Under the pieces are notes generated by a model. The model did not search any database. It had not been told where the DNA came from and saw nothing but the letters and a program-made list of their open reading frames with translations. The translations under genes were made by a program, and so were the position numbers. Of a DNA stretch of 64,000 nucleotides, positions 39,933 to 63,626 are shown piece by piece. The stretch comes from Octopus sinensis (lineage: Eukaryota), in contig NC_043017.1 of NCBI RefSeq assembly GCF_006345805.1, positions 19,406,001 to 19,470,000 of the forward strand. The letters run 5' to 3'. The first letter of the stretch is position 1. Each line of letters begins with the position of its first letter.

Positions 39933-40010
<78 letters not shown>

Positions 40011-40011
40011 G

Positions 40012-40067
<56 letters not shown>

Positions 40068-40121
40068 TATATAATATATATATATATATATATATACATA
40101 TATATATGTATATATATATAG

Positions 40122-40158
<37 letters not shown>

Positions 40159-40186
40159 ATATATATATATATACATACATATATAG

Positions 40187-40218
<32 letters not shown>

Positions 40219-40320
40219 ATACATACATACATATATATATACACATATATATATACATACATATATACACATATATATATATACATACATATATACATAC
40301 ATACATACATACACACACAC

Positions 40321-40354
<34 letters not shown>

Positions 40355-41677
40355 AAGTTAATGAAGTGTGTAAAATAAGTAAAAAAAAAAAAACCGCAAA
40401 AATAACAAAACCCAAATATTAACAAATGAATAAAAAAAGAAAATAAAAAAGAGGGACAGGATAAAAAAAAAGCAACAAACAAAAACCCCTCTCCCCCAAG
40501 GCTAAAAGAGCAGAGCAGCAGCCTCAGGTTTCTAATCAGTTTAGCTAAAAGCAAATAATCCACATTCTGAAACTCTACTCAATGCTATGTCTGTCTTCGT
40601 TCAGTTACGCAAACACTTTTTTTTTCATGCATTTGCACCACCCCACCCTGGGGCCTTAATCTATTTTTCATCTTATATAATGTGTCCCTTAGGGACTGGG
40701 AAAAACTGCATCGTTTTCTCATCCATTATCACATTATCATAACACAAACATTCAGAAAAGAGAAGAAAAATAATATAAAATGATAACTAAAGAGAGACAA
40801 AAAAAATGTTTATTTTTAGTGTCTGTGAGTTCTCCATGCTTAATTTTACTTAAGATATTCCATTCTTAGAATATGGATCTGTTCTCATGCATGCCGCTGC
40901 ACTGATTGCAAAAGATGATATTTCAGATTATGATATGACAAAAACACACACACACATGAATATTGGCCCTCTTGATAGTTGCTATCATCCACGGCATTTT
41001 TTTTTGGTAACTCCACCACCACCACCACCACCACCACAATCTACGGCAGTCATTGTAATCATCATCATTTAATGTCGATTTTCTATGCTGGCATGGGTTG
41101 GACAGTTTGACTGGAGTTGGCAAAAGTTAGGGAGCTGCACCAGGTTCTACTGTCTTTTGATGTGGTACCAGTATGAGTGCCTTTAACATGGTGCTGGCAT
41201 GGGTGCTTTTAGTGTGGTGCTGGCTCGGGTGCTTTTAGTATGGTACTGGCATGGGTGCTTTTAGTGTGGTACTGGCATGGGTGCTTTTAGTGTGGTACTG
41301 GCATAGGTGCTTTTAGTGTGGTGCTGGCATAAGTTCTTTTAGTGTGGTGTTGGCATGGGTGGTTTTAGTGTGGTACTGGCATAGGTGCTTTTAGTGTGGT
41401 GCTGGCACGGGTGCTTTTAGCGTGGTACTGGCATAGATACTTTTAGTGTGGTGCTAGCATGGGTGCTTTTAGTGTGGTACTGGCATGGGTGCTTTTAGTG
41501 TGGTACTGGCATGGGTGCTTTTAGTGTGGTGCTGGCACGGGTGCTTTTAGTGAGGTACTGGCATCGGTGCTTTTAGTGCGGTACTGGTATGGGTACTTTT
41601 AGTGTGGTATTGGCATGGGTACTTTTAGTGTACCTTGTGAGTGTATTTGGTAGATGGAAACTTGAAAGAAGCCCGTC

Positions 41678-41709
<32 letters not shown>

Positions 41710-42831
41710 ATCTGTATGTCTGTTTATGTCCCCGTAACTTAGAAGTTTGGCAAAAAGAGAGCAATAGAATAAGTACTAGGCTTACAAGGAATAAGTTCTG
41801 GGGTTGATTTGCTTGACTAAAAGGCGGTGCTCCAGCATGGCCACAGTCAAATGACAAACAAATAAAAGAATAATAGAATAAAAGAAGAAAATAGAAAAAC
41901 AAAGAAGGAAAAAAAAACAGTAAAAGAAGGTATGAATTACCTTTGGTACGTATAATTTCACCGATGTGATAAGAAAACACACTTTCAGCACTCAGTCCTA
42001 AATTGGTGATTGGGTCGATTCGTAAAACATACTCCTGTGCAGAAAAAAAAAATGGATCAGTGAGAAAGAAAAGCATAGGGTTCCCTGAAAATAAAACTTA
42101 AAATATAAATGTAAACTAATCTTGAGAAATGCCTTATTTGTAACTTAGGTATCCCTGCATTTTATCTTAAGTACCTTCAAAGGTACTTTATACCCCAGTT
42201 TAAGAGAGCCTTCCCTGATCTGAAAAAATGCTTTATTCATAACCTTGATATATATATGCATATACACCTTTTCCTCGAGTCATGACCTATGCGACTTACG
42301 ACCATAAAAAATAAAAAAATAAATAAATAAATGATTTTCGGACATGGGGCAGCCAGGCATATGATAACAATGGTAGCGTCCGGCAATGCAGGTCTCCCTC
42401 AGACCCAGGCATCCACTTACCTGCCATTGTCTCTCACTCAGTTGTTTTTAAGAATCAGTTGTGTTTGTATGAAAATAGTGTGGAAAAATATAAATCTAAC
42501 ATACAACCACATTGATTTACAACCTGTCAGTCAGAATGGAATTGGGTCCCAAGTCGAGGAGAAGCTGTATATAAATACATGATTAATTCAACAAGGCAAA
42601 AGCAGTGTTTCTTTTTTTTTTCCACAAATCTCATGTACCCCAGCTTGACAGACCCACACTTGATCTCAGTATATATATATATATATGATTAATTTAACAA
42701 GTAGTCTTTTTACCAATGTCATGTATTCTTGTAATTTCTTTTGTGTACCTCTAAGAGTAAACACACCCCAGACTGAGAGACCCCCCACCCCACTACAATG
42801 ATCTTAAAAAATGCTTTATTCATAATGTTGT

Positions 42832-42863
<32 letters not shown>

Positions 42864-44303
42864 GTATAAAACACAAAGAGAAATTGCCTGTTATAGGCAA
42901 TTTCTCTGTATTTCAAATGTACACTATTTTATATTGAATAATATGTAGTCTATTGACTTTTTATGCATGCTAGGCCACTGGTAATAAATTTGTAAAAATT
43001 TAATACCCTATATAGATATTTAAGTATATATATATATATAAAACAAGGTAAGCAATAATTTCCTTTATATATATATTTCTTAATTTTCAAACTTCTACAG
43101 TTTTTTTTCAGAGTTTCCTAAACAAGTAATTTTAATCTTATTTAATTCTTGATGCACCACAGAGTAAAAAAATATCTAAATAAAATAAAAAAAGAATAAA
43201 AATAAAATGGCCACATGATTACATTGTTATTCCTAAAAAGTTTTAGAAGAAAAGGAAAAAAATGTCTTAAAAAACAAAACACAAAAAAACAACAACCTTA
43301 CCTTAAATATCTTTCGTACAATATTGTCTAGAATATCCCATTTGGTTTTGCCACTTACAGATAAAGAGCCAATAAGAACCTCTGGCAACTTCTGCAATTG
43401 GAAAAAAAAAAAAAAACACATGATACTATTACTAATAATAATAATTAATTCTTTTATTGGCCACAAGGGCTGACAAAAATTAATTATAACATAAAGGGAC
43501 AAAACACAGGACGAAAGTTACAAAGGGTTTTGTCCGTTTGTAAAATCCGAGTAAAAAACAGTTTAACAATGAAAATATAACAACGAAAAACTCCCAATAG
43601 GGGGAGGCATTTCAAAAGGTTCCTGATGGAAAAACCCATAAAAGCCATGGGAGCCTGGTCAAAAGGAGGGTAGAGAGCCCCTTTCTCCTTTTATATTACC
43701 TTTTTAATTACAGGTGTATCCTCAGAAAGGCTCCTTTCATACTGGCCTCAAATTTTGCGGAAGGGATTAATTTGAATACATCGAATCTAGTGCGTAATTG
43801 GTACTTAATTTATTGACCCCCAAAAGAATGAAAGGCAAAGTTGACCTTGGTTGCATTTGAACTCAGAGCGTGAAGATGGATGAAATACTGCTAAGCATTT
43901 CGCCCAGCGTGTTAACGGTTTTGCCAGCTTACTACCTTAATAATAATAATAATAATAATAATAACAACGAATGTGGACTATGAGGGGAGTGTCTGTCATT
44001 CCAGTAGTTGAAAGGGTACTCTTTTAAAATAAGCAATTTGTAATCTGGAATGGTAATAATATGGAATGTTTAGTAAGTACTGAAATCTATTAAGATCACC
44101 ATAGTAACAGGTACTGCCCCACCCCTTAAACAGAAAGAATAGAAGAGAACCTCCCGGATCACAAAAATACCCAACTGTTTACAAGATACACACACACACA
44201 CATATATATATATATATCATCATCATCGTTTAACGTCCGTTTTCCATGCTAGCATGCATACACATAGATATATACATACATACACACACACACATACACA
44301 TAG

Positions 44304-44338
<35 letters not shown>

Positions 44339-46461
44339 TATATATGCACATACACATAGATATACATACATATATATTTACATATGTATATGAATATAAA
44401 TATATATTTCATCTGTTGCTTTATTCTCTAAAAACAACAAAAAAAAAAAACCAACCCAAAAAGCTAACAACAAACAAAAGACCCATTATTCTTCTGCTAA
44501 ATGCTGATATGATAATCAAGAATGGAACTGCTTTGGTGTGGAGCAGATTTATTATTATTTTATTTTTTACCCCCCCCCCCACTCCATTTTTTGGCTGCCA
44601 GTGAGAGAGATAACGCACATGATGGAACGGCTGAATGAATATATCTTTTTTGGGGAAAAATGTAGATTATTGTTGTTTCTCATTCATTCGATGATTGCTT
44701 TCAGAGAGAGAGAGGAGACGGGAGGTGGGTGGTTGGGGAGAATTACTCAACTGACCGGGGTGGGTGGGGTGGGGGGAATAAAATAGTTTCCTGTTTATAA
44801 TTTATTTAATATAAACAGGAAGAAGAAGAAAAAAAATTAAAAAGAAACCAACAAAGCAAAACAAAACATACAAAAATCATAATGAAAAATGGAAGCAGGC
44901 AAAGCTACATAATGTTATGTAGTTCAATGTTTGGTCATGGATGGCATTGATGATGATGATGATGATGATTGATGATTGAGTATTGCATGATGATGATGAT
45001 GATGTATGGCATGATGATGATGAAAATGTATGGCATGATGATGATGAAAATGTATGATGATGATGATGATGATGATGATGAAAATGTATGATGATGATGA
45101 TGATGATGAAAATGTATGGCGTGATGATGATAATGTAAACAATGATAATGAATCATCGTTATCGTTATCACAGTACTTGTCATTATCATCGTACTCATTA
45201 TCATCTACATTTCCATAGGGGCAGAGTATTTTTTTATGGCTGAATTTCTTCGTTTTACCAATTTAGATTGCTTTAGAACAGGATGTTTGTATCACAGATT
45301 CAGAGCAGTGTCAGACAGGTTGGTATCAAAAGGGTTAAGAAACTTATAAGTTGGCAGGTAGGGAACCAGAAGGTCTGGTCTAAATGTTTTGCCATTCTAT
45401 AAAAAGCTGAGAAGGATCCACTTAGTGACTTCTACTTAACTGTTTTGTTACTATATTTCTGTTAAAAAACAGTGCATTGGTTTAAATCAATTTTGAAAAT
45501 TATAAAGAATTTAGTAAAATAACTTTGTCATTATTGATCTGCTCTTTGGAACATAAATTAGCATAAAATTTTCATGGGAGAAGGCTTTATTATAGATAAT
45601 TTTAAAAGAAGAAATTTGGGTCACAGAATCAGGGGGCTGGTTTAGATTGGCATCTAAAGGGTTAAGAAGTTGTAAGTTGGCAGGCAGGGAACCAGAAGTT
45701 TGGTTTAAATGTTTGCCATTCTGTAAGAGACAGCAAAGAATTCACTTAACAATTCCTACTTAATCCTTCTGTTACCATATTCCTGTTGAAATACACTGAC
45801 TTATTTTGAAAATAATGAAGAATTCAGTAGAATAACTTTGTCATTGATAAGTTTTTGATTGGAACAGAAATTAACAGGAAATTTTGATGAAAGGTTTTTA
45901 ATTTAGATTACGTTAAATCAAGGAGTAGGTATCAAAGAACCAAAAACAGTCTTTGATAGATTGGCGTCAAAAGGGTTAAAAAGCTTAAAGTCTGGCAGGA
46001 AGGGAACCAAAAGGTCAGTTCAGATGTTTGCCATTCTGTAAAGGGCAGAGAATGACCCACTTCAAAACTCCTACTTAAACCTGCTAGGAGTTAGCTTGTA
46101 TCAAAATAGTTGACCATTTTGTTATATTTCTGTTAAAATATGCCGCCTTTGTTTGAGTTAATCGAGAAAATAATGAAGAATTTAGTGAAATAATTTTGTG
46201 GTAATTTAAGCTGGTGTTTGGAACATAAATTAACATCAAACTTTGGTGGAAGGTTTTAATTCAGATTACTTTAAAACAAGAAGTTTGTATTGTAGAAGTC
46301 ACAGGTAGTTTGGCATGAAAAGGGTTAAAGAAATCTTTGTGAGTAAAGTACTAAGGAACTGACCTCTGGAGCCCTAGTTGGATCAGGATTTGACCCCAAG
46401 TAAACAGTGATTGTTACTCGCTTTCCTTCGCGATCAGGTGTCTCTGGGATCTGCATTATAT
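11732..46461 (-). CDS. NAV2: Neuron navigator (NAV2/NAV3/UNC-53/sickie-like) gene, partial: 10 spliced exons encoding the C-terminal AAA+ region; 5' exons and final exon not found in the window
   Basis: Joined exons 46364-46461, 43302-43391, 41941-42034, 37863-37937, 36285-36456, 34921-35136, 32825-32896, 31674-31870, 31201-31319 and 11732-11941 are all GT-AG and phase-compatible. They give one open frame with the NAV-family motifs VSGKTKWD, ELLPxGYLVG, [69 protein letters not shown] and [11 protein letters not shown]. The paralogue number is nominal for an invertebrate. Confidence 0.95.
15640..16057 (-). mobile_element. SINE family B, full copy, inverted relative to 22138-22550
   Basis: Its reverse complement is nearly identical to 22138-22550. 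Confidence 0.85.
17108..17625. repeat. 21-bp minisatellite, about 24 copies (ATTAGCTAGAGTACAAYGATC)
   Basis: Direct inspection. Units are diverged at the left end and homogeneous at the right, and two units carry the same 4-bp deletion. Confidence 0.95.
19412..19606 (-). mobile_element. 3' fragment of an RLE-type LINE (R4/Dong-like)
   Basis: Frameshifted translation LETEV..M..L....P..MEALSIIP...QIPGNP..SELQK...[10 protein letters not shown] matches the C-terminus of restriction-like endonuclease LINEs. It abuts an (ATT)n tract. Confidence 0.7.
20168..20191 (-). CDS. Candidate 24-nt cassette microexon of NAV (SRKLNDNE)
   Basis: Sequence aactgcctcctattttttctcccag|TCACGTAAACTGAATGACAATGAG|gtaagta. 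Phase 0-0 matches the host intron and there is no stop. Confidence 0.6.
22138..22550 (+). mobile_element. tRNA-derived SINE family B, full copy
   Basis: ggcacaggagtggctgtgtggtaag (A box), ggttcagttcc (B box), cttgggcaagtgtctt core, internal TA/TG tract, and tail tgactgaaacaagtaaaagagtaaaa. Confidence 0.85.
23755..26046. repeat. Tandem duplication of about 1.15 kb (23755-24903 and 24904-26046)
   Basis: Near-identical copies with an offset of 1149 falling to 1143. The ORF track shows duplicated ORFs. Confidence 0.95.
24188..24439. mobile_element. hAT-type MITE (duplicated at about 25335-25584)
   Basis: Termini cagtggttctcaa ... ttggaaaacacag, a Charlie-like CAGTGGTTCTCAA TIR. Confidence 0.6.
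27129..27217. repeat. (GA)n microsatellite
   Basis: Direct inspection. Confidence 0.95.
29898..29984 (+). pseudogene. 5'-truncated 5S rRNA pseudogene or 5S-derived fragment
   Basis: atcactgaagttaagcaacatcgagcctagttagtacttagatgggtgaccgcttgggaaacctaggtgcagtaagc retains the A box, intermediate element and C box, and is followed by a T run. Confidence 0.85.
31201..31319 (-). CDS. NAV2: NAV exon (G)[39 protein letters not shown]
   Basis: Acceptor ttattttgtag, donor CAG|gtaatt, 119 nt, phase 1 to 0. Not in the ORF track. Confidence 0.97.
31674..31870 (-). CDS. NAV2: NAV exon [23 protein letters not shown]...[15 protein letters not shown](G)
   Basis: Acceptor cattgcag, donor TTG|gtaaga, 197 nt, phase 2 to 1. 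Confidence 0.97.
32825..32896 (-). CDS. NAV2: NAV exon (C)[23 protein letters not shown](R), sensor-1 region
   Basis: Acceptor tatttctttgcag, donor CAG|gtgagt, 72 nt, phase 2-2. Not in the ORF track. Confidence 0.96.
33876..34836. mobile_element. Old non-autonomous DNA transposon (pogo/Tigger-like) containing a nested piggyBac MITE
   Basis: Inverted termini cgtaaaaacccacgtaattt and aaattacatgggtttttacggta. Confidence 0.55.
34575..34795. mobile_element. piggyBac-like MITE family 1 (other copies at about 21430-21645, 33270-33490 and 45230-46325)
   Basis: TTAA-CCCTTTCGTTAC ... GTAACGAAAGGG-TTAA, with several similar copies in the window. Confidence 0.85.
34921..35136 (-). CDS. NAV2: NAV exon carrying the Walker B-like motif ([24 protein letters not shown]...[16 protein letters not shown])
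   Basis: Acceptor ttttcttttag, donor GTG|gtgagt, 216 nt, phase 2-2. Confidence 0.97.
36285..36456 (-). CDS. NAV2: NAV exon carrying the AAA+ Walker A motif ([28 protein letters not shown])
   Basis: Acceptor ttttactttcag, donor AAG|gtaaga, 172 nt, phase 1 to 2. Confidence 0.97.
36722..37597 (+). mobile_element. Internally deleted Tc1/mariner element of the DD37D (maT) type
   Basis: TA-CAGGGTG...GATAAATTGTCACC left end and degenerate right TIR. Pseudo-ORF ...[11 protein letters not shown]...[17 protein letters not shown]... has 37 residues between the 2nd and 3rd Asp and several stops. Confidence 0.88.
37863..37937 (-). CDS. NAV2: NAV exon (D)[24 protein letters not shown](G)
   Basis: Acceptor ttctgtttcag, donor AAG|gtaaac, 75 nt, phase 1-1. 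Confidence 0.95.
39850..40350. repeat. Long imperfect (TA)n/(CA)n microsatellite
   Basis: Direct inspection. Confidence 0.95.
41160..41632. repeat. 26-bp minisatellite, about 18 copies (GTGTGGTACTGGCATGGGTGCTTTTA)
   Basis: Direct inspection. It follows a SINE C 3' fragment at 41058-41155. Confidence 0.95.
41941..42034 (-). CDS. NAV2: NAV exon [31 protein letters not shown]
   Basis: Acceptor ttttttctgcacag, donor AAG|gtaatt, 94 nt, phase 0 to 1. Confidence 0.95.
43302..43391 (-). CDS. NAV2: NAV exon [30 protein letters not shown]
   Basis: Acceptor poly-T ccaattgcag, donor AAG|gtaagg, 90 nt, phase 0-0. Carries the conserved VSGKTKWD motif. Confidence 0.95.
45230..46328. repeat. Tandem array with a period of about 320 bp (MITE plus about 100-bp spacer)
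   Basis: Spacer aagttggcagg.agggaaccag...gtttgccattct...ccactt..c..ttcctactt at about 45338, 45666 and 45980, alternating with MITE family 1. Confidence 0.8.
46364..46461 (-). CDS. NAV2: NAV exon (D)[32 protein letters not shown]
   Basis: Acceptor tactttcag, donor GAG|gtcagt, 98 nt, phase 1 to 0. Resembles the NAV2 segment DMLL...EGGRHVKIVV. Confidence 0.85.
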
Positions 46462-46777
46462 CTGAAAGTAGAACAAAAAGAAAAGTTAAATATTAATAAT
46501 AATAATAATAATAATAATGACAAATAATGGTTTCAAATTTTGGTACAAGGCCAGCAATTTTGGGGGAGGGTGTAGGTCGATTACATTGACCGCAGTGCTT
46601 AACAGGTACTTATTTCATTGACCCCCCAAAAGGTTGAAAGGGAAAATCGACCTCGGCTGAATTTGAACACAGAACATGAAGGCAGATGAAATTGCATTTT
46701 GTCCCGTGTGCTAACGAATCTGTCAAGTCATTGCCTTAAAAATTAATAATAATAATGATAATAATAATAATGATGAT

Positions 46778-47145
46778 GTAGTACCAGGCAGTGGCTCTCA
46801 TGGCTTCTGAACTCAACTGATTGGAAGTGTTATCATGTACATTGTTTTGTCTTGGCATAAAGGATGGGCTACAGCAAATATTCTGCTCAATACCACAGAT
46901 TTGCTTGTCAGTTGTTTGACCGTAACCAGTTGAGCAAGTTCCTTGGTGGCCTTAAGTGCATCTCTGATCATGAACAGGAGTTGTGGGGGAGCATCATAGC
47001 CATGTGTTGAGAGGGGTTCTTTGTGGTTTGGATAATTCATCTCTGGAAACGTGGGTGTTTCATTCAACATCCTTAAACAATCCTTATTCAGGGACCTATT
47101 GATGGGGATAACTGGGCCCCACCTGCAAGGTCATGCATTGTTTAT
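46778..47145 (+). mobile_element. Dispersed repeat inserted in (AAT/GAT)n; partial inverse copy at about 19045-19198
   Basis: gtagtaccaggcagtggctctcatggcttctga..actgattggaagtgttatcatgtacattgttttgtcttgg recurs reverse-complemented at 19120-19198. Confidence 0.65.
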
Positions 47146-48522
47146 CTGGAAGATGTTCCCCAGTGGGTGGGAAGGTGGAAGTTATTTATGTATTGCTTTT
47201 GTTTTTTTTTTATTTTGTACTCTTTTAGTCAGGAGGGAAGGGAGTTCCTGTAACTCTTCACATGGCTTCTGGGACTGGTGGGTGGTAAGACAGAAATATA
47301 ACCAGACCCCTAGCCTGGCCTGAATTCTTGCAACAGAATGAGCTCCAATAAAGACCACCCCCAAGGTGCCAGATGGTGGCGTTAAACCGGGTGACATATT
47401 AGGTCTACCATCAATGGTTATGTGTGTCTGTCTAAGTAAATAATTTGATATGCAAGAGTCAATTCAAAACACAATTTTAAAAAAAGGTAGAAACGAAAAT
47501 GCTAAGTAGAGGTTAATGTGAAAACAAAAGCTTGTTAATGAACAAGTGTGTTAAAGTCTCATGCTCATAACCTAATTGTTTCGTTACAGTCTGTTGTCAT
47601 AAACGAACACAATATAATAAATGTATGTATGTATGTATACAGGCACATGATGGAGAGACAGATTTTTCAAAACTGCATAAAAAAACAAACAAAATTTCTT
47701 TATTATTTGATGATGATGATGTTTAATATGAATGAAATTGTGATGAATAAGAGGAAAAAATGGGAAACAAAGAACCCTTACTGACCCCAAAAGGAAAAAG
47801 ATAAAGAATCAAATTTACTGATATCAGATAATACCAGCAAACATATATGTATATATATGTATGTATATGTGTGTGTGTGTTTATGTGTGCGTGTGTATTT
47901 TATGATGTAATTAATTAAATTGATAAAATAGAAATTCTGTCTTTTTTTGTTGTTAACTATATAAGTGAAAAAAAACACAGAAAATATTTTAAAATCATTT
48001 TCAATCATTTTTGTTTTTTTTTAGGGTCTTTTGTTGAGGACAGAAACAAAACAAAACAATGCAAAACACACGATAAAAAACAAGTTAATTGTTCTAGTAA
48101 AATGAAAACAAGCTTCAATGTTCTGAGCTAATTTTGACAAACAAAATGTTATAATGGAATTAAAAATAATAGAAAATATAACAATTCTTTATAAAATTTT
48201 GTCTTGTATTTGGTTTGCAAGATTCTTGACATGAACTCTTGTCATGAAACTGATTTTGTTGTATCTTGGGAGGGTCAATATGCAGATAATAAACACACAC
48301 TGGTTCTATTTCACTTCTTCATTATTTATTTGTTAACTGGTTAACCATTCAATCAATTAAGTAATTGTTTGGTTAATCAATAAATCAGTTACGTTTGTCA
48401 AAGTCCTATCACCATTCATGACCCCTCCAATGACATGCTCCTTAGAAAGGGGTGAAACAAGGGAGATGCTATGCAGTTGCCATGAACCAAATAGAAACAG
48501 TAGCCAAATATCCCTCAATTTG

Positions 48523-48553
<31 letters not shown>

Positions 48554-50941
48554 CCATCATAAATGTCATGTGGTTGTCTGCTATTTTATTTTATTAGCCC
48601 CCAAAGAATGAAAAACAATTGACTCCAGCAGGATTTGAACTCAGACCATAAAGAACTGGAATAAGCACCATGAGGTTTTTGGTCTGGTGCTCCAATGATT
48701 CCACTGTTCACTGATTATGTAGGTTTGATATGGAAGTGGGCCATTTAGGTTGCTAGGCAACAGATGTTCTTTATTGAATTCCAAAGAAAATTCATTTATT
48801 CTTTGGAAAGTCTGTTTGCAACAACAGTTTCCTGTATTTCAATGAGGGAGATGGTAAGGAATGGACACTTTTATCATAGAACAGTGATACAAGTCTGGGA
48901 ATTATTTTGGTATGGAAATGTACACACACACACATACAAACACTAACAATGGACACTCATAAACACAGATGAATACATAAAAAATAAACAGAGGCACACA
49001 CACTCATACACAAACATAGACACACATAAACAACACAAGTTTATACAAACACACACACACACACACTGATAAAATTCAGAGTGAATTCTAAGATAATCCC
49101 ATTGTTCCAATTGTATTAGGATGGAACAGAAAGAGGAGACCAGAGCAGCATCATCATCACCACCAACAACAACACATGTATGGTTTTGCTTTGCTTGTTT
49201 GATAAAACTAAAAAGTCCTTTGGGGAGGGGGCCAGTCGATCAGATAGATTCCAGTACATAACTGGTACTTAATTTATTGACCCCCGAAAGGATGAAAGGC
49301 AAAGCTGACTTCGGCAGAGTTTGAACTCAGAACACAAAGGCATGAAATACCTATTTCTTTATTACCAACAAGGGGCTAAACATAGAGGGGACAAACAAGG
49401 ACAGACATAGGTATTAAGTCGATTACATCGACCCCAGTGCATAACTTGGTCCTTAATTTATTGACGCCGAAAGGATGAAAGGCAAAACTGACTTTGGCAG
49501 AGTTTGAACTTAGAATATAAGGACATGAAATACCACTAAGCATTTTGCCCGGCATGCTAAAGGTTTTGTCGCCTCTAATAATGGTAATGTCTATAAATGT
49601 CTTTGCTTTGTTTAACTAATCCATTGTTACAAAAGATTCTAATCTTACACCACCGCTGCCACCGTCACCTCACACTCCTTTTATTCCTTTGACTTCATTT
49701 TAAAACCAAACAACTTGTGAATTTGTGATAGAAATTGTCTCCACATCACATCTAATAGTAATAACAACCTCCCCACCCACCTACTCTCTGATTGTTAATC
49801 TTTCTACTTCCTGCTTTGCCCGGCATCATTCTTGTCTCTTGAAGTCAACACATATAGGGTGGGGTGGGGTGGGGGTAGAACAAAAAAAAAGAAAGAAAAG
49901 AAAAAGATATGTCTTTCTTTGGGATTCCTCTTGGAAACCTTTGAGTGTAAACATTTGGATGTCATCTAATATAGGTTTTGTAATTAAAGGTGTCTCGTTG
50001 GTGGTGGCGGAGAAAGAGAAGGGAAGAGGTGAAAGTGGAGAAGGAGAGGTGGAGGAAAAGAAGGAGGAACATGAAGAAGGCAAAAGAAAAGGAAAAAGGT
50101 GAAGAAGTTGGTGGTGGAGGTCGTGAGTCAAATGGTAAACATTTGATTAAGTTTTGTTGTTGTGAACTCTTAGGTTGTTGGTTGAAGAAATGAATCGGTA
50201 AGAAATCCTAATAAAATATCACTGTTGTATTTATTCAACGATCTGGATTCCAGGAATTTCAGTTTGGGAAAGACAAAGATGGTTAAGGAACGGAAACCAA
50301 TAATAAAAAAAACAAACAAAAGAAAACAAAACAAAATGTAAACAAAAATCGTTAGAAACAGAAATATTTTGATGTAATAGATGCACTCCTACACACACAC
50401 ACACACACAGATGGTAATAATAATGCTACAAGATATGACGGAATCGTTCCTTTGTTTATTTATATACAGATACAGAAAGTCTTCAAATTAGTCAAGGAAA
50501 TGAAATGAAATAAAAAAACAAAACCATCATTTAATGTCTGTTTTCTATGCTGGCATGGGTTGGATGGTTTGACAGGGACTGGTTAATGAGGAGACAGCAC
50601 CTAGCTCCACTGTCTACTTTGGCATGGTTTCTTAGTTAAGCACCAGTACCGGTGGGGTCACTAACTAACTTGTGAGATAAAGACCCCAGCTATGGTGGGG
50701 ACAATTGCATGAATATTCCTCTTTTATTTCACTCTATTTCATCTCATTTCATTACCTTGAGAAATTTGAAGACTTTCCATAAATAAACTAAAGAATAATT
50801 AATTCCTTTATTATTAATACCAATAAATAAACTATTCTGTTCACTACCAAAAACATTTTATTCCAACGTATTTATAAAATGATTAACTGCAAGTGTAACA
50901 ACAAAAGAAGTAGACCTCAATATCATTGACAGAGAGGACTA

Positions 50942-51184
50942 TATATTTAATACTCAGCATATTATACAAACATGGAACCCTCACAGACGGTACTCAGAGT
51001 TTCCCAGCAAGCCACAGGTATGGAGTTAACCAATTTTTGATTTGTAATCAACACACAAGCCACTGGGTATTAGCTGTTGTGTGAAGCCACTACAGGATAA
51101 CTTCATACCCGTGACTTGCTGGAAATCTCCAAGTACTGTAAGAGAGTGTTACACGTTTGTATAATATATTCAATAATAAATATA
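50942..51184. repeat. Long imperfect inverted repeat (arms of about 90 bp, loop of about 63 nt), probably a MITE
   Basis: 50942-51031 aligns without gaps to the reverse complement of 51095-51184 and is flanked by TA. Confidence 0.8.
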
Positions 51185-51462
51185 TATATATATATATATT
51201 AATGGCCACAACCTTAGGCCTAAACTGTATCAAAGAGTAAAAGAATAAACACAAACAAGCATGCGTATGAGTATAACTACATCAGTGAGTAAGTGAATAA
51301 GCAACTCTATGTTTAGCTGTAATATTGTGTGGTTAGTGTTAAATGGTGTTCTATATTTTTGCTATAACAAGTGCACTATTTTCTCTCTTTATATATAAAT
51401 CATTAAGCAGTTCTATGTCAGGCCATAACATTGTGTGTTAGTGTTAAACGCTGGTTCTATAC

Positions 51463-51507
51463 CTGACTGTGTAGGAGATTTCATTCCCATTTTTTGTTTT
51501 CTTCTGC
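51463..51507 (-). CDS. Candidate 45-nt microexon of NAV ((G)RRKQKMGMKSPTQS(D))
   Basis: Acceptor tactttctctttgcttttcag, donor CAG|gtatag. Phase 1-1 matches the phase-1 acceptor at 46461, and the frame is open. Confidence 0.6.
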
Positions 51508-52694
51508 CTGAAAAGCAAAGAGAAAGTATTATAAGAAAATACCAGAACGACCTACTCTACTCTTCTTTTTGGTTTCATTCACATTTGATGCAGGAATGGA
51601 TTCCATGTTTATGATCATGCTCATTCACCAACTTCAATCCCAGTTTCAATATGTGAGCATTAGAATATATTTGTGTGTGAGTGGGTGTGTTTTCTTTTTG
51701 AAGGCATTGAAACTGTTAGAATCCTGAGTGAGGCAGCTGATGAAGACTTTTTTTATTTATATTTTTCATTCATTCTGTCTGATGTGGGCTATTATTATTC
51801 GGGCCCAATCCTTAGACTTACATTTACGATTGCAGAATACTGGAAAGAAATGACACTGCTTTTATAACAGTGACACTCATTTACAGCCATCACATAATGA
51901 CAATACACACACATGTTAAGTGACAAAAACTTGAAAATGAAAAGACTAAAAACGTGTCCTATCTAAACAGAAACTAAAATGTAGTCAAATTTTTGACTTT
52001 GTTCAAAATGAAAACATATTTGTAATTAAGAAACAAAATCCAAAAAGAAGCAAAAGAAAACGTTAAACAAAAATCTACATAATTAATAATGATGGTTGGA
52101 AATTTTTGGCACAAGACCAGTATATTTAGTTGGGGGGGGGGGGGCAGTATATTCCATCAATCCCAGTATGTAACTGGTACTATTTTATGGACCCTGAAAG
52201 GATGAAAGGCAAAGTTGACCTAGGCATAATTTGAACCCAGAACATAAAATATATATATATATAAAAAATTCACATGGACCTCGAACACACAAGAGTAAGC
52301 AAGAGAGACAGAGAAAGGCAGAAACAAGGAAAATGCCACTTGTATTTGAACACTATACAAATATTCTTTAAAAAAAAGCTTTTCTTTTAATTTTTCTAAA
52401 TTTAATTATTTAATTGTTACAGTTGAAAAGGTCTCAATGACTGAAACCAGTACTGAAATGTTCTTTATAAAATTATTTTAGCATTTTCTATCCTGACTTG
52501 TTTTTTCATATATATATATATATATATGACGAACGGGAACATGAAACTCCAAGTAACAGGTTTTGTTGAATTTCTGCTGCTTTTAAATAAAGCATATTAC
52601 TCTACCCCTGGTATTTGAGTACTCTTTTTTTCCCACCTTGTTTCACATTTATATGTTTACTCCGGTATATATATATATATATATATATAGATAT

Positions 52695-52728
<34 letters not shown>

Positions 52729-53571
52729 GTCAGTCCTTTTACATACATCAAAATACGTTTAAGTACTTCACAACCAACCCCGTTTCTTTTTTTTCAGTCA
52801 GACATGTGTTCATACAATAAAGTACTTAGTTTTAACATTGACTTTCAGTATTCTAACAAAGAACTTCTAGATTGCCCCCACCCCACCTGCTCTCTCTCTT
52901 GGTGTCGTTCTCTCATTTTCCATCATCTGAACATAATTGATATACAGACGCACAACTGCCTTGTCACTCAACATGCAAAAATTACAGACAGAAATTTGGA
53001 AATTAATCTCCCCTTAATAAGTCCATAAGCCAAACATTGGCACCGCATGACATGGAGGATCTTGCTTGTCGGGGACCCGTTAGTGCAATCAAACGGCTGC
53101 TCCACCCCTTCCCACCTCATTTGTCACAATTAATTCTTCTAAATAACAGAAGCTATCTTTGACATTTAGTGTAACCATAGTAACATACTGATAAGCTCCT
53201 TTACTTTTTTTTCGTTTTTTTGGGGGGGGGGACGAACTTTTTCTTCGTTAAGTGACAACTTATAACATGATATTTCTGTATCCCTTCTTCCATAGCTAAT
53301 ATCTTTAAAACTGTACACACACACACGTGAAATGTAGATACATATGCAGCCGTATGTCACTAACAGTTCAAGCACACTTTCACAGAACAAGAAAAAGAAA
53401 AACAAAAAATCAAAACAAAATCCTGAATGGTTTACTAATAGGGATTTAAGTATATTCTTAAATATCACTGAAGATTAACCTTGAAAATCAAACCTTTTCC
53501 CTTTCTCTTCTTCTTCTCTCTCTCTCTCTCTCAAATTGAATATTGTTCTCTCCTTCCATCTCTCAATGAGG

Positions 53572-53605
<34 letters not shown>

Positions 53606-54983
53606 CTCTCCACCCCTGAAGCCATCATCAGCAATTATGTCATCTTTAAGTTTGTCTCATCTCTTACAAAGTGACAAGTCCAACTTAAAAAATATTTGCA
53701 TGTCTCATGTCTCCCAGTGGTTGAGCGATGTGGTGGTGGTGGTGGGGGGGACGTGATGAAAGGGGGCCCTTTCAGCAGGGGGGGGAGAGCAGGGAGAGCT
53801 GAGAGAATGTCATTTTGTCAGAGGAGAAAGAGGCAGCTATTTGATACGGGGTACATGCTACACGCTAAAGAAGCTGCACGTGTTATCATCAACCGCAATC
53901 TCAGAACCAATTACTTGTGCCATTATCGTATTTTCTTTTTGTTTTTAATTTTTTTTTTAACACCCTGTTGAGCCCAGTACCCCCAACCCCCACCCACTCC
54001 CACTTTGCACCCCTTTTCCTTCCTGATACCTATCATCCATGCCTGCCTGCCTGTCTGCTTGCCTGCCCTACCTCTTGCAGAGATTCTAGGAATAATTCCC
54101 TTATAAGGAGTTGCGTGGTAAGAAGTTTGCTTCCAAACCATGTGGCTTGGGGTTCAGTTCCAATGTGTGGTACTTAGAGCAAGTGTCCTCAGGCTGACCA
54201 AAGCCTTGTGAGTGGATTTGGTAGATGGAAACTGTAAGAAGCCTGCTGTGTATATGTGTGTGTGGTGTGACTCCCCACCCCCTACAGGCAGAACAGGATT
54301 GCAGGGGCACAAAGAAAACGAGAACTGTGCAAGTCCAGAACCAATTCCTTGTCTTCAATTCCTGCAGATCACCAATCCCCGACCTGTGACAGAGCCCTTC
54401 GACTGATTGGCCACAACCGGACATGCTGTGACTCATCTTCTTCTCTCATGTGATGGATAACGATAATAATGACGGACTAACATAACGTAATATGTGTGTG
54501 TGTGTGTGTGTGTTACGTATTAGTTGTTATCATACGCTGTGAGAAAACGTTCACTAATTATCCATCTTAATATGTGATTTGCAATTAAGCAAAACACGGG
54601 ATCTAACACACATACACGCATGTGCATGCATGCACATGGCTGTTCATTTTTCATTTTTGGAGATAACCGAGAACCTGCCTCTCATATTACTGCAACAACA
54701 GAGCAAGCAGATGCACAAGGGACCAGAGATTCTTGATGTCTCCTGCTTATATTACATATTCTGTGCAACGAAAACATTCCACTATCGCAGATGCACATCG
54801 CGCCCTGACCACTCACACAAATATGCGCACACATACATCATCATCATCATCATCATCAACAGCATTGCTGCCATTGTTGTTTTAACTTCTGCATTTTCAC
54901 GTCTGCATGGGTTGGATAAGATTTATCAAAGGCAGATTTTTTTTTCCTTTGGCTGGATGTTCTTCCTGTTTCCCATCCTTTAA

Positions 54984-55205
54984 CCCTTTAGTGTTCGCAT
55001 TATTCTGCCAAAGTTAATCCTTTTTTTATCCACATTGATTTGAATTAATCAGGCATTATCTTGTAGTTATGAGATTTTGATGAGGTAGCCGTTAATTTTT
55101 AAAACGATATTGTAGGGTTGGTGTGAGAGACCAGATCTGGCCAGTTTGAACATAAAACAGGCAGAATACTTTTGGCCGGATATGGCCGGTTTAAATGCTA
55201 AAGGG
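54984..55205. mobile_element. piggyBac-like MITE family 2 (also 35683-35902; SINE-interrupted copies at about 1907-2437 and 22596-23110)
   Basis: TTAA-CCCTTTAG ... CTAAAGGG-TTAA with a shared internal sequence across copies. Confidence 0.85.
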
Positions 55206-56129
55206 TTAAACAAATTTATGTGCAGCATGATATTATAACGGGACAATATTCTTTGGCAAGCTGGCAGAATCGTTAGCATGCCAGAGTAAAAGAAAGTCAA
55301 ATAATATACCAGTCAAATACGCGGGTTGATGTGATTGACCTCTTCACCCTGACCTTGAAGATTACTGGCCTTGTGCCTTTAATGAGATGCAACAACAGCT
55401 AGCATGACGAAGTCAGTGCCACCACCGCTGCCACCACCACCACCACAACCACCATCACTGCCACAATATTGTGTCTGAAGAAACTGACAATACATAAGAG
55501 TATTTTAAACTACAGGCAAATACTTCAGTGATGATGATGATGATGATGGCGATGACAATGACGAAAGAGTTTGAAGAATATCGCTTTGCAACATTTTTAA
55601 AACTACAATTAAAATCAGATTTCAGATATTTAGGTCCATTAAATGAAGCCAAACAAATTTCTATATTTTCCAAAATGTTGCCAAACGATTTTTTTTTCTT
55701 AGATTTTTTTTTTTTTTTTTTTTTTCATTTTCCCTTAAGTTTTACATAACCTACTAGAGACATCTTAAAATCTAGAGTTATTGTGTTTTACTGATATTAT
55801 TCACTACTCTCAGAAATGTTGGTGGAAACATTCAATCTGCTTTATTTATTAATGTCTTTCTTTTTCGTTTGCATCTCTGGTAAATTTTTCTTATTTCATG
55901 TTCGCAGAATTACGATCCAAATTAATTCTAAAACTAATAACTAAAGTGCTTCAATGTTAAGAGGTAAGTTCTTCAGGTGTGTGAATGGGTACCTGGTTGT
56001 GCGGAGTAGGACATAGGACAGCACCTTAGCAAGCATGGAAGATGTGGTGTGTAGTTGTGTTGTTAACCCAGGTGAAGCTAACTGGTTACAAATAGATCTT
56101 GGGTGCATATCTATCTATCTACATACCCA

Positions 56130-56175
<46 letters not shown>

Positions 56176-56182
56176 ATATATA

Positions 56183-56220
<38 letters not shown>

Positions 56221-56223
<3 letters not shown>

Positions 56224-56429
56224 ATCCAAACGTGAAAACACCAAGAGAAAACACAACAACGCGAGGACGTGGAACAAATATAGTATTATTGGATGCTCAG
56301 GAAGGAATGGAAGAAGGAGGGTTTTACGTTTCGAGCGGAGCTCTTCGTCAGAAACATAGGAAAAGGAAAGATCCAGAGAAGGGAAGACGGAGGAAAAAAA
56401 ATCGCCAACGATACACACGCGGTCACATT
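56221..56429 (-). mobile_element. Penelope-type pseudo-LTR fragment with a minimal hammerhead ribozyme core, inserted in (TA)n
   Basis: Minus strand GTTT-CTGACGA-A-GAGC(TCC)GCTC-GAAA-CG-TA-AAAC at 56355-56321. Confidence 0.65.
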
Positions 56430-56634
56430 TATATATATATATATATATATAAAGAAAACAGAAAATGGAAAACCCATGTTAATCCTTGTCTATAACTTAT
56501 GAACATATCTTTGCATGTGTATGCCCATGGTTATATATAAGTAAAATACCGGTAGTGTAATAGCTACTTCTACCCCTTAGATGGTTATTTTAAGCCTCTA
56601 ACTAACCCACCCATATATATATGTGTGTGTGTGT

Positions 56635-56926
56635 GGAGGCGCAATGGCCCAGTGGTTAGGGCAGTGGACTCGCGGTCTTAGGATCGCGGTTTTGATTCCC
56701 AGACCAGGCGTTGTGAGTGTTTATTGAGCGAAAACACCTAAAAGCTCCACGAGGCTCTGGCAGGGGGTGGTGATCCCTGCTGTACTCTTTCACCACTCTT
56801 TCTTCTTTTGGCCTGCTCGCTTAGCCAGCAGGGTGGCGTCATTTGAAGGCTAAAACAATGCAAACACATTGTGACCAGCGATGTGTAACTACATCTGATG
56901 GACTGGTTGGTCACGTGATCACGTGA
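56635..56926 (+). mobile_element. tRNA-derived SINE family D; interrupted inverse copy at 58300-58797
   Basis: Head ggaggcgcaatggcccagtggttagggcag...gattccc, with the body shared with 58300-58797. Confidence 0.75.
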
Positions 56927-58012
56927 TATATATATATTGCTTGCTGTCTTGAGGTGTGTGTGTGTATGCTAGTGTATATGTTTGTACCTCCTTTTAGCAA
57001 TAGGCAATAGTTGTAAATGAGCATCACCTTCACACAGGCGGTGTCGATTCACACTCAATTTTCAGTGAAAACATGTCCAGCCATGGAGAAATATTACATT
57101 ACATGGAAACTGTTGAGGGCTGGTGACAGGAAGGGTATCCTGCTGTAGAAGATTTGTCCCGACGAATTCCATATCACCCATGCAAGCATGGAAAAGTGGA
57201 TGCTGATGATGATGATGATGTCAGACACTGAATTTTGACAGCGGCGAAACACCCGCAGGATTTCAAGTATTGAAATACACGTCACACAAAAAATTCCAAA
57301 TAATTTTCACAAAGCATCTCCTAGTAGGAGCGCAATGTGTATGTAAGTAGGTGCAAATAATAAACATTTCTAAATCTGGTGTGCTCAGATTGAAACGACA
57401 GCATAACAAATACGGACAGAGAGTATTGTGGTTGACTATTACAACTACAAGATTAAAAAAAAAAAATCAAACAACCTAAATATTATCACATCACGTTCAG
57501 CTCATCCGTACAATAGATTCCAAAGACTGCGCGAGTAATTTATACCATTTCATTGTTTTTTATTTTATTTTTCAATAATAGAAAGTAAATTTCTATTTCA
57601 AATATTCTATATGCATATCGTTGTCTGTTTTGTAGCATTCTGGGGACAAATTTATTCTTTACTTCTTTCTTTCTTTCTATTTTTGATTTTTGGTATGCAC
57701 AAGTGGCGTTTCCATTTACCAAATTACTAAAACCATGCATAGATGGCAACAGATTCTTGTTATCAAAACCATTCCAATACAAGCAGTTAGAAAATAGTGC
57801 TTTCATAGAATTTCTTCTTCTCTTTCTGCCCCACCATCTCTCTTTTTCAAATAAGTAATGTATACATATATGAATATATTCATAACATACACAATATATA
57901 CACACTCATAAATATACACATGAATATATATATAATAAAATATTACACACACACACACATGTATACATTTGAAGAATTTGGAAGTCAGTCCTTTTATGAA
58001 GTTGCTAAAATG

Positions 58013-58054
<42 letters not shown>

Positions 58055-59229
58055 TTTGCTTTTTCTTACACAGACACACATTTCTCATTACATATTGAAA
58101 TCACATTCTCTCATTTCTAAAGCCATGTATATAAGCAGTTACCGTGTACCACCTTGGGAATCGAGTGTCTTCTACTCTAGCCCTGGGTCGACCAAAGCCT
58201 TGTGACTGGATTTGGTAGATGGAAACTGAAAGAAGCCTGTCATGTGTATATATATATATACATATATATATATACATATACATATATATATATATATATC
58301 ATGTGATCACGTGACCGACCAGACCATCAGATGTTGCTACACATCGCTGGTCACAATGCGTTCGCATTGTTTTATAATATATATAATGAAATTATTGTAT
58401 ACAGTGCTCAGGTGCACCACAACTTGTCAGAAAGTCCATATAAAGTACATGCAGTAATGTAGAAATGTCTGGAAAGCGAACAATGTATGAGTCAGATACA
58501 TGCTTGTGTGTGTATGGAGGGGAGAAAATCAAGTGTAGTGTTGGCGAATCTCAGGAAGCATGGAAGTTTTGAAGGATGCAAGCCTTCGAATGATGCCACC
58601 CCGCTGGCTAAGCGAGCAGGCCAACAAGAAAGAGTGAGAGAAAGAGTGGTGAAAGAGTACAGCAAGGATCACCACCCCCTGCTGGAGCCTTGTGGAGCTT
58701 TTAGGTGTTTTGCTCAATAAACCCTCACAACACCCGATTTGGGAATCGAACCCATGATCTCACAATCGTGAGTATGACATCCTAACCACTAAGCCATGGA
58801 TCTGTGTTTGTCATTCGGTGTTGGTGTGGTTACATCTCTGTAACCTAGTGGTTCAGCAAAAGAGACTGATAGAATAAGTACCAGGCTTAAAAGAAAAATA
58901 AATACTGGGGTCAATTAGTTCGACTAAAATTTCTCAAGGCGGTGCCCCAGCATGGCCACAGTCTAATGACTGAAACAAGTAAAAAATAAAATAAAATATA
59001 TATATATATTCTTTTACTTGTTTCAGTCAGTTTACTGCGACCATGCCGGAGCACCACCTTTAGTCGAACAAATCGACCCCAGGACTTATTATTTCTAAGC
59101 CCAGTACCTATTCTATCGGTCTCTTTTGCTGAACTGTTAAGTTATGGGGGATGTAAACACACCAGCATCAGTTGTCAAGCAACAGTGGGGGGACAAACAC
59201 ACTAATACATACTATACATACCTATATAC

Positions 59230-59262
<33 letters not shown>

Positions 59263-59867
59263 CATATATATATACATACCTATATACATAAATATATATA
59301 TATATATATTTATGTATATAGGTATGTATAGTATGTATTAGTGTGTTTGTCCCCCTATATATATATATATGATGGGCTTCTTTCAGTTTCTGTTTACCAA
59401 ATCCACTCACAAGGCTTAGGTTGGCCTGAGGCTATAGGGGAAGACACTTGCCCAAGGTGTGTATGTGTGTGTGTGTAATATTTCTTATTATATATATGCA
59501 TGTATTTATTTACGAGCGTGTATATATAATGTATGTTATGAATACATTCAATATATGTATATATATGTGTGTGTGTGTGCAAGTATGCATACACTAAAAA
59601 ATGACTTGAACTTATATTACAGAGAAAGTGGAAAAATTTGTTAAGAAGCAACCAAAAGACCCCCTCCCCACACACACCTGGCTGACACAACCAAATTCTA
59701 AAAAGTACTTTAGTCACATGAAAATCAATGCAACTCAGGCACTTTTAGTATTTGTAGGGTCTACCACTACTACTGCTGCTGCTACTACTACTACTAGTTG
59801 CGTAAGATACCTTAATCTAGATATAATAGACTGGTTGTAATGAAAATGTGTGTATGTTGGCACATGG

Positions 59868-59905
<38 letters not shown>

Positions 59906-60020
59906 AAAATAATAAATAACGAAAACGGAATAAAATAAAAAGGAAACCTTGTAATAAAGCCATGGAATCTGTTTCCAGAATGACTAATGTACAAATACCT
60001 GTACAAGTCCAAAGATAATA

Positions 60021-60062
<42 letters not shown>

Positions 60063-60144
60063 CATTTGATATGCATTTGTTGCATACCTTGGTAGAAAAA
60101 AAAGGGGGAAAGAAGAAGAGAAAGAGACAGAGGGAACAAAGTAA

Positions 60145-60182
<38 letters not shown>

Positions 60183-60307
60183 GTGAGATCCTTAACAGAA
60201 CTCATCGTACCAAGGTTTTCAAACAATCTCTTTCTCTCTTATCTCATACAGAATATTCCTTGTACTAATTGTCTAATCATGTTACATAGTTACATGGTTC
60301 TGAGCTT

Positions 60308-60354
<47 letters not shown>

Positions 60355-63300
60355 TCCCCTCTTTTCTCACTAATTTGCCTAAGGTTTCGGTTATTTCTTG
60401 GTTTTGGAATCTGATCTCGCCTTCGCCATCAACTGCAGACCTAACTAACATCTTACTCATTAGTAACACATGCACACACACACACGTACACATTTTTGAA
60501 AGACAACATGACTGTATCTTTAGGGTGCAAAGTCTACCAAAGGGTCCAGTAGAAGAATGCAGAGCAATTATATTTGTTCATTTACTTTACATCAGATTTT
60601 CCATGATAGCATGGGTTAGAGAAGAACATTCTACTGAGATATTATTCTACAGATGTCGTCATTGATCCTTACCGGCATTTTCAAGTAAGGGAGTTTCCTT
60701 TTGACTCTGAGCTAAAATTCATTATTATTAATAATAATAACAATAATAATCCTTTCTATTATAGGCACAAAGCCTGACATCTTTTTTTAGGAGGCGGGGA
60801 CCAGTCGATTACATCGACCCCAGTGCGTAAGTGGTACTTAATTTATCAAGGATGAAAGGCAAAATCAGCCTCAGCGGAATTTGAACTCAGAACGTAAGGA
60901 TGGGCGAAATGCTGCTAAGTATTTTGCCTGGTGTGCTAATGATTCTGCCAGCTCACCACCTTAATAATAATAATAATAGTCCTTTCTACTACAGGTACAA
61001 GGCCTGAAATTTGGGGACAGGGAGTAAGTTGATTGCATTGACCCCAGTGTTTGACTGGTGCTTATTTCATCGACCCTGAAATGATGAAAAGCAAAGTCGA
61101 GCTCGGCAAAATTTGGACCCAGAATATACAGATGGATGAAATGCCACTCAGCACCTTGTCTGGTGTGCTAACAATTCCACCAGCTTGACACCTTAATAAT
61201 AACAATAATAATTCTTTCTAATTTTTGGCACAAGCCTACCAATTCATCCCAGTATTTGATTAGTAACAGTGTTTTGTCAAACCCTAGAGTATGAAAGGCA
61301 AAGTTGATCACAGTAGAATTTGAACTCAGATCATGAAGAGCCCAAAGAAATAGTGTTAAGCATTGTGTCTGACAGGCTAATGATTCTGCCAGCTCACCAC
61401 TTTAATTAATAACTAATAATATAAAGTGACAAATTAGGAGAAAGAAAGGCCCCTCTTCATATTAAAAGAAGTGGAGGGGCCACCACAGAAAAACTTAGAT
61501 TGCTCTGACACACCAGACCCCCAGATCTTCCTCCCTCCTCTTGCCCACCAACATACAGCTATGTATTTCATACCCATCAGTTTAACCGAAGTGAAGTTGC
61601 ATGGCCTAGTTGTTTGAGCAGCAGTTCTCAACCATGGCTCAGAGGGCCTCATGTAGCCCTCAAACATCCTTCCAGTAGCTCTTGATGGTCTTCCCTCTAT
61701 AAATATAATAAATTCTTCTTTAATTGACTTGTGGTTTACTCTTTTGGTGTGGCCCCTAAAAAAATCCTCATCAACCTTTCATACATTTTTGCCTGAAACA
61801 AGAATTTCCTCAAAGAAACTGAAGAGGAAAAGCTCAGTTGTCAAACACCCAACCTTTGGTGCTGCAGCAGCCACTGAGCAGAAAGAAAAGACGACTGGCA
61901 ACCCACCCTTCGTAGCCAAAGCAAAGCAAAGCAAAACGGTGGGTGGATCTTCATGACAGATTTGGCTGAAAGCCGGATCCGTTATGCATGTGATAACAGC
62001 TGTTTTGGAACGCAAAATAAGAACAGTGATTCTTGGAATTCAAGACAGAGGCTTCCTGCAGTTTCTCTGCACAAATGCTATTTATTTCCTTGCTCTACAC
62101 TGCAACCACGACCATGACAACCACCACCGATACCAGCACCGCCGCCATTTAATAATCTATCAATGCAACTAACGAAAAAATATGACCTCACCTTCCTTTG
62201 CTTCTTATTTAAACACATCCTGTTAATAATATAGATTTTATTTTAGATTATAATGTTAAAAATTTAATATATTTTTAATATTCAATTTGGAGCTAGGTAC
62301 ATATTTTCTTTAACACACACACACGCACATGTACAGTATGGGAATATATCGACACATGGCGGAGGCAATGATGTGTAGATCCTATATTTTAAAGGATATT
62401 TTCGTACTTAATAAAAACCTATTACTGAAACCTTATACTCGGATATATCTATGAGCACACACTGATTAGGCAAGGTGGGTAGTGAGTGTGTGTGTGTGTG
62501 TGTGTGTGGATGTCTATATGCTTGTGTATACACACACACACATATATATAAGGAGAGAGAGAAGGAAATATATACATGTATATACATATATATAGATATA
62601 CACACCTATATACACATTTAAATATACCTGCATATACACGCATGCACTCAAACACAAAGAATGACACACACGCACACACACACATATATATATACAAATA
62701 CACACACACATACAAACACAAAAATAATATTTGGCTAAAAGCAGTTCTTATACCTCTATTATTACTGCTGCTACTGCTGCTACTACTACTACTACTATTT
62801 TATATTTATACTTATTATCATTATTAGTGTTTTTTTTTTCTTCCTAATTTTATTTTATTTTTCCTTCTCCCTTCTACATAGTTTATTGATCTTTGAAAGC
62901 AGGGGGTATGTCATTTTAGCACAGTTAGCAACGTATTAGATTCCGCAGAAACAAAACTCTGTATCTATCAATAGAACAAAAAAAAAGTAAAAAAAAAGAA
63001 TTTTTAAAAGTTATCTTTGGGAGCAAGGGTAAAAACAGCCCCCCACCAGCCCTCACACCTCATCCTAAAAAACAGGGGATAAAGGTTTACTATAAAGCAG
63101 TCGTAGTAAAAACATTTCGGCATCTAGATAATATTTCTCAGGTTTCTTCTACAGACTGGAGAATTCAGAGTTGAGTTTGTTTCTTTACTCTTGTGTAAAA
63201 TTCCAGAATGACTCACCTAAGTTACAACAAAACGGAGAATTTGGTTTTCCAACCATGTGCTTTTTGGTTCAATCCCAATGTGCGGAACCTTGAGCCAGTG

Positions 63301-63626
63301 TCTTTGGTATGTAAAAAAGCACCATTCGGGCATGGTTGATGTCAGTGTTGCTTGAGTGGCACACACGACGGTAGCACATAAAAGGCACTGGTGCCACTTA
63401 AAAAGCACCCAGTACACTGAGTTGATGTTAGGAAGGGCATTGGGCCATAGAAATCATGCTAAAACAGACAAAATGGAGCCTGGTGCAGCTCTCTGGCTTG
63501 CCAGCTCCTGTCAAACCATCCAACCCATGCCAGCATGAAAAACGGATGTTAAATGATGATAATGGTAATGATGATGGTGTGTGTGTGTCTGTGAGTGATG
63601 CCTTGTCTTGACAAGATGTGGTACTA

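Follow-up and report, generated by a model that had tools for sequence, protein, structure and literature searches.

A 45-nt alternatively spliced exon of the octopus neuron navigator, shared with cuttlefish: a candidate short-motif switch before the UBL/AAA module

In the octopus neuron navigator gene we describe an alternatively spliced 45-nt exon that is shared by octopods and cuttlefish, and we give an even chance to the view that it acts as a short-motif switch in a linker, predicted to be disordered, before the UBL/AAA module. That it is a real cassette exon is as good as certain; for the switching function taken by itself, our estimate lies slightly below an even balance. Overall, the exon is an ordinary, annotated cassette conserved in coleoids, and the motif switch is a testable addition to it. 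The window means the whole 64,000-nt stretch of Octopus sinensis DNA analysed, and positions refer to it unless another locus is named.

Splice sites, host gene and transcripts

An earlier note on this DNA had proposed the exon from the letters, and its sequence, coordinates, minus strand, acceptor, CAG/gtatag donor, length, phase and peptide were all confirmed (Table 1). On the minus strand the acceptor reads ...tactttctctttgcttttcag, followed by 45 exonic bases (51507-51463) and then gtatag. The frame is open in phase 1/1, the peptide in context is (G)RRKQKMGMKSPTQS(D), and the length is a multiple of three with phase 1 on both sides, as in a cassette exon. A 401-base stretch around the exon matches the genome at one place. 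The proposed in-frame splicing to the exon at 46461 was borne out: that exon begins in phase 1, and the inclusion junction ACAGTCAG/ATATAATG, suggested for a check in RNA, is present by letters in a contig of run X16, leading from the downstream exon to the 45-nt exon. The true upstream exon ends in phase 1, which is the phase that the splice calls for. It was located 5.6 kb outside the window when a 2246-residue cephalopod-type protein was aligned by tblastn to the window and 200 kb upstream, with the exons falling in order; tblastn with full-length cephalopod Navigator gave nothing else up to this upstream exon, in agreement with the claim that the 45-nt exon is the sole convincing exon in the 17.5 kb upstream of 46461.

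The host gene was identified from its domains. An AAA-domain exon within the window matches Octopus neuron navigator 2 with 100% identity and gave 353 hits among 426 candidates, and nearly all those named among the matches listed are Navigators. Full-length models carry PF23092, PF00004 and PF25408, and the order of two coiled coils followed by UBL (PF23092), AAA (PF00004) and the NAV1-like lid (PF25408) is that of the Navigator family.

Table 1. Coordinates of the exon, its splice sites and the neighbouring parts of the navigator gene.
Feature	Position	Strand	Remarks
45-nt phase-1/phase-1 cassette exon	51463..51507	minus	encodes (G)RRKQKMGMKSPTQS; residues 1747-1761 of RefSeq isoform X1 (P0199)
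3' splice site: polypyrimidine tract + CAG	51508..51529	minus	single UGC at -10 (51517-51515)
5' splice site CAG/GTATAG	51457..51462	minus	used in contig of run X16
Host gene: octopus neuron navigator (NAV2-like), 3' part	5049..64000	minus	
UBL, AAA and AAA-lid exons of host gene	43391, 42034, 37937, 36456, 35136, 32896, 31870, 31319, 20191, 11941, 5117	minus	
Downstream exon, 98 nt	46364..46461	minus	encodes (D) and 32 further residues; start of NAV1-like ubiquitin-like domain (PF23092)
Downstream intron, 5,001 nt	46462..51462	minus	several high-copy repeats
Upstream intron, 18,066 nt in total	51508..64000	minus	5,573 nt of it beyond the window; phase-1 donor G/GTAAGT at L002:5574
Upstream exon	L002:5730-5574 = G000:C21:19475574-19475730		ends CTT G/GTAAGT, phase 1
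24-nt phase-0 exon SRKLNDNE	20191-20168	minus	inside AAA lid (PF25408)
21-nt exon WPHHLPM	G000:C21:19506884-19506904 (in L005)	minus	in coiled coil 1

Other features of the gene were seen along the way. RefSeq isoform X7 uses an alternative last exon, EMNQYLSW...NINIC, at 5117-5049 (minus strand), while an exact search for the other C-terminal peptide, TNKLTKFQ..., gave no match in the window and the upstream loci. One intron of the gene contains a stretch of about 1.15 kb that is duplicated in tandem (about 23650-25970, with the same open frames at 23872 and 25021); the duplication is either real or an assembly artefact. In parts of the AAA region that are otherwise highly conserved, Octopus has ATGLTTN and ETQIPK for the ATCSTTN and ETLIPK/ETMIPK of decapods and other molluscs (32896-32825 and 36456-36285, minus strand).

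For transcript evidence, contigs from 5 runs of 5 studies (24 runs listed) were mapped to the locus. These runs are without an RNA label on record, and we take the contigs as transcripts because they hold spliced junctions. Mapping over 46300-51600 was swamped by intronic repeats and gave no splice joints, and a short repeat-free stretch was used instead. The skip junction, from the downstream exon directly to the upstream exon, was found by letters in contigs of runs X1, X13 (with one substitution) and X24. For run X9, a depth of 14.4 x 46/168 predicts 3.94 in the exon bin against 3.95 seen; since the contig thus accounts for the exon-bin depth at 46/168 bases, X9 probably includes the exon, and the same arithmetic holds for X16. 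The zero depth of X24 on the exon bin was counted only jointly with its skip junction. A further contig of run X13, 1002 nt long, covers 50524-51508 and leaves 28 letters unplaced; it probably represents a precursor that was partly spliced. As X1, X16 and X24 share one organism code, inclusion and skipping are both seen under the same label. Minor variants are lost from contigs and the tissue of the runs is unrecorded, so these data speak for the presence of the forms and not for the level of inclusion or a tissue bias.

The RefSeq models agree with the two junctions. In O. sinensis the exon is included in 8 of the 9 isoforms among those listed (15 of 20 cluster members shown) and skipped in X3; in O. 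bimaculoides, X1 (XP_052831530.1) includes it and X2 (XP_052831531.1) skips it. With inclusion and skip junctions in transcripts and isoform pairs in RefSeq, the frame-preserving cassette just before the UBL/AAA module stands as proposed. Since RefSeq models both forms, the exon is already annotated as alternative: the same exon is included in neuron navigator 2-like XP_036367785.1 (X1) and skipped in XP_036367787.1 (X3). These models of the two octopus species are automatic annotation alone, without lineage range, regulation or function. The earlier note was right about the exon but overlooked both this annotation and the short-motif swap at the junction.

We found no description of the exon in the literature, and the isoform table of PMC9699675 or the exon tables of 10.64898/2026.09.05.749416 (O. 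bimaculoides included) may list it. The supplements of PMC9699675 gave no match in the 24,410 characters of text searched. In the accessible part of PMC9699675, Navigator is not mentioned, and octopus alternative splicing is described as highest in neural tissue, yet without departure from other invertebrates.

A chance pseudo-exon, or splicing noise within a long intron, has a negligible probability. A simple splice-site scan of the window does give several false small candidates, but a spliced junction in an RNA contig, the RefSeq models in two octopus species and the identical Sepia peptide refute this explanation. Because the peptide is identical in cuttlefish models and the 401-base region is unique in the genome, the exon is not a chance feature. 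RNA editing within the exon was also considered and rejected: its last 30 nt in X16 equal the genome, and the between-species differences Q/P and M/I are not of the A-to-I type.

Taxonomic range and conservation

The range was surveyed in 271 fetched proteins covering the linker, consisting of 21 cephalopod-type and 250 other sequences. Four of the 21 are unnamed contig proteins assigned through clustering with Sepia. The 250 others, which form redundant sets of isoforms, come from bivalves, gastropods, a chiton, annelids, a nemertean, arthropods and deuterostomes. Nautilus is not represented, the homologue searches having returned no sequence from it. The exon is included in 17 of the 21 cephalopod-type sequences and skipped in the other 4, while its peptide occurs in 0/250 non-cephalopod Navigators, where the best local score is 25 versus 67-77. 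It is quite probable that the exon is restricted to coleoids.

Within cephalopods, where the earlier note had suggested a peptide search, the identical peptide is present in cuttlefish models: identity to octopus is 15/15 in Sepia, 14/15 in one contig protein and 13/15 in Argonauta. Thirteen of the 15 residues, among them all five basic ones and KSPTQS, do not vary between octopods and decapods. In favour of the motif switch, the exon is 15/15 identical between octopus and a decapod-type contig protein, a level reached by 226 of 1292 IDR 15-mers. Against it, the flanking linker is equally conserved (38/39 and 12/12), so the conservation of the exon is not special in its region. As a side observation, the contig-derived decapod-type proteins P0002, P0130, P0132 and P0134 show S>G and K>G in WLRSSFSKAF relative to genome-derived models. 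These differences match the pattern of A-to-I recoding; species differences are also possible.

The intron looks older than the exon, judging from read-through translations of mussel-like and snail-like contigs (P0308, P0310) that diverge at the same phase-1 position. Mytilus also has an optional insert, of 30 residues, at the same Navigator junction and the same phase-1 position, present or absent among models. Unlike the cephalopod exon, it resembles a duplicated end of the upstream exon and leaves the net charge unchanged, and its sequence is unrelated. Judged from the models, it is likely an independent gain. A homology of the two, hinted at by an RK....M..P spacing, was rejected: the insert falls outside the best 25 non-cephalopod scores and looks like the duplicated exon end. 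For human NAV1 and NAV2, the accessible text of PMC9877351 places isoform differences in disordered low-complexity regions with the CC and AAA+ parts intact, as with the octopus exon, but no fetched vertebrate sequence has an insert like it at this junction.

Residues and motifs added to the linker

In the AlphaFold structure predicted for the inclusion form of Sepia, residue 239 is the last of coiled coil 2 and residue 301 the first of the UBL; residues 240-297 have pLDDT under 50 and the exon occupies 273-287. The linker that joins coiled coil 2 to the ubiquitin-like domain, in which the exon lies, is accordingly predicted to be disordered. The exon adds five basic residues and one SP site, and the net charge of the linker shifts from -3 to +2, which bears out the basic patch claimed earlier.

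The exon also changes the residues that follow the serine-leucine pair at the junction. In the skip form, S-L is joined to D-I-M and the ancestral S-L-D-hydrophobic motif is kept; in the inclusion form, S-L is joined to G-R-R-K, giving SLGRRK. Because the skip junction DHGSLDIM matches NSDHGSLDILL of Asterias, SSEHGSLDILL of Saccoglossus and ESTSLDMLL of human NAV2, skipping is the ancestral state. In cephalopods, however, even the skip form no longer carries the ancestral motif unchanged, having DIMQI in place of DMLL, which tells against the switch. In a Lottia model, which has no insert, the SSLDMLL stretch lies in a low-confidence helix (H326-339, pLDDT mostly under 50). The pattern [ST]L.R[RK], which was noticed post hoc, occurs twice in the N-terminal IDR versus 0.11 in shuffles (P = 0.0055). 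An upstream [ST]LGR site is kept in 14/14 mollusc representatives, with SLGRRK in two clams, and G-R-[RK] follows 18 of 12,629 AG positions in the region.

Kinases of the TNIK/MINK type have the consensus S/T-L-x-R, to which we give no weight as evidence; in the literature examined no kinase consensus for SLGRRK was confirmed. The context of CDK sites is S/T-P-x-K/R and that of MAPK sites is P-x-S/T-P. For the proline-directed kinase site that had been proposed, the S/T-P core is present as KSP at 1756-1758 and is invariant in all 17 inclusion sequences; but as KSP sits in M-K-S-P-T-Q, with TQ after it, it has neither full context. SLK phosphorylates mouse NAV1 fragments in vitro according to the accessible part of PMC13632193, which shows just that Navigators are kinase substrates.

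The basic patch had also been read as NLS-like, and an added nuclear localisation signal would give a nuclear or shuttling Navigator isoform. The core of a classical monopartite signal is K-K/R-x-K/R. RRKQK is basic, but inclusion creates no such match, and two clusters of this kind, KKNK at 1579 and 1598, are present with or without the exon, so the NLS-like reading is weak. The accessible text of PMC9877351 mentions predicted Navigator NLSs and a single study that placed NAV3 at nuclear pores, but deems these motifs of uncertain significance in proteins that are mostly cytoplasmic; we regard a nuclear role of the exon as improbable. The same text places the proposed Navigator microtubule-binding regions in poorly conserved IDRs.

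If the exon is a motif switch, its basic patch would make the protein's electrostatic contact with microtubules, or with some other acidic partner, stronger. The new serines of SLGRRK and KSPTQS may then put this contact under kinase control, switching it off, and inclusion would vary by tissue, probably with a neural bias. A rival reading, which we find rather unlikely, is that the exon mainly acts as a spacer, lengthening the CC2-UBL linker by 15 residues or displacing the ancestral SLD-hydrophobic motif, with its residues kept for a splicing enhancer. The purine-rich 5' end of the exon and the unrelated, charge-neutral mussel insert at the same junction suit a spacer. The invariance of 13/15 residues, basic residues and KSPTQS included, argues against it, as does the end of the mussel insert, a repeat of QPSL by which SLEMLL is preserved, whereas the cephalopod exon splits the motif.

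Splicing control, other small exons and significance

Under a looser limit, microexons extend to 51 nt. The 45-nt exon fits this size but exceeds the strict limit of 27 nt given in the accessible part of PMC8378409, so the microexon label used earlier holds only in the loose sense. Like the neural microexons controlled by the eMIC (SRRM3/4, Srrm234), the exon is short, frame-preserving, skippable and in a cytoskeletal gene, but it shows the splice code of such exons only in part. Fly eMIC targets, as described in the accessible text of PMC8797185, combine a UGC close to the 3' splice site with long AG-exclusion zones and strong branch points. Here the UGC noticed earlier is present, at -10, but it is not distinctive: TGC occurs within 45 nt in 5 of 17 other acceptors of the gene, in 3 of those only as TGCAG. 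The AG-exclusion zone is short, 42 nt against a median of 73 in the 17 other acceptors, and the 120 nt upstream of the exon hold no YURAY branch-point match. By the accessible part of 10.1101/2024.09.17.613571, UGC is neither universal nor strictly needed. A match to SRRM_C (PF15230) above cut-off was found on a small contig at L022:1501-1635 (G000:C11337:11167-11301, minus strand), covering profile positions 13-55 only, and is likely an Srrm234 exon. Control of the 45-nt exon by the eMIC is possible.

Two further small optional exons were found in the gene. Models of O. bimaculoides and Sepia show the 24-nt exon SRKLNDNE as optional; its peptide does not differ between the two lineages and is absent from the other taxa, with a 3-residue insert at its place in a nemertean. 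With two UGCs (-22 and -32), an AG-exclusion zone of 74 nt and the donor GAG/gtaagt, it is the stronger candidate of the two for a microexon in the strict sense. The 21-nt exon WPHHLPM is common to octopods and decapods, and some models skip it. The inserts that oysters, abalones, scallops and a whelk carry at its junction all differ from it and from one another, which suggests repeated independent exon gain. The most far-reaching account, which we consider doubtful as a whole, is that the 45-nt exon is a coleoid-born, neuron-enriched exon by which a shared serine-leucine pair becomes part of either the ancestral bilaterian S-L-D-hydrophobic motif or an extra S/T-L-G-R-R kinase-type copy in an axon-guidance +TIP, and that, together with the 21-nt and 24-nt exons, also small, optional and conserved in coleoids, it diversifies Navigator in the nervous system of cephalopods.

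Short frame-preserving exons in disordered regions commonly tune cytoskeletal proteins; since such exons are common and this one is in the automatic annotation, it will not surprise a specialist. It is nevertheless a clean test case, a lineage-specific gain that is near-unchanged in octopods and cuttlefish, in a neurite-growth gene and at a junction where mussels gained another insert. If the switch is true, it would indicate what two short, conserved motifs of Navigators may do, motifs that are absent from the domain section of PMC9877351 in its accessible form. If inclusion is neural and the phospho-motif is switched, splicing, and not RNA editing or microRNAs, would here add to the neural protein diversity of coleoids.
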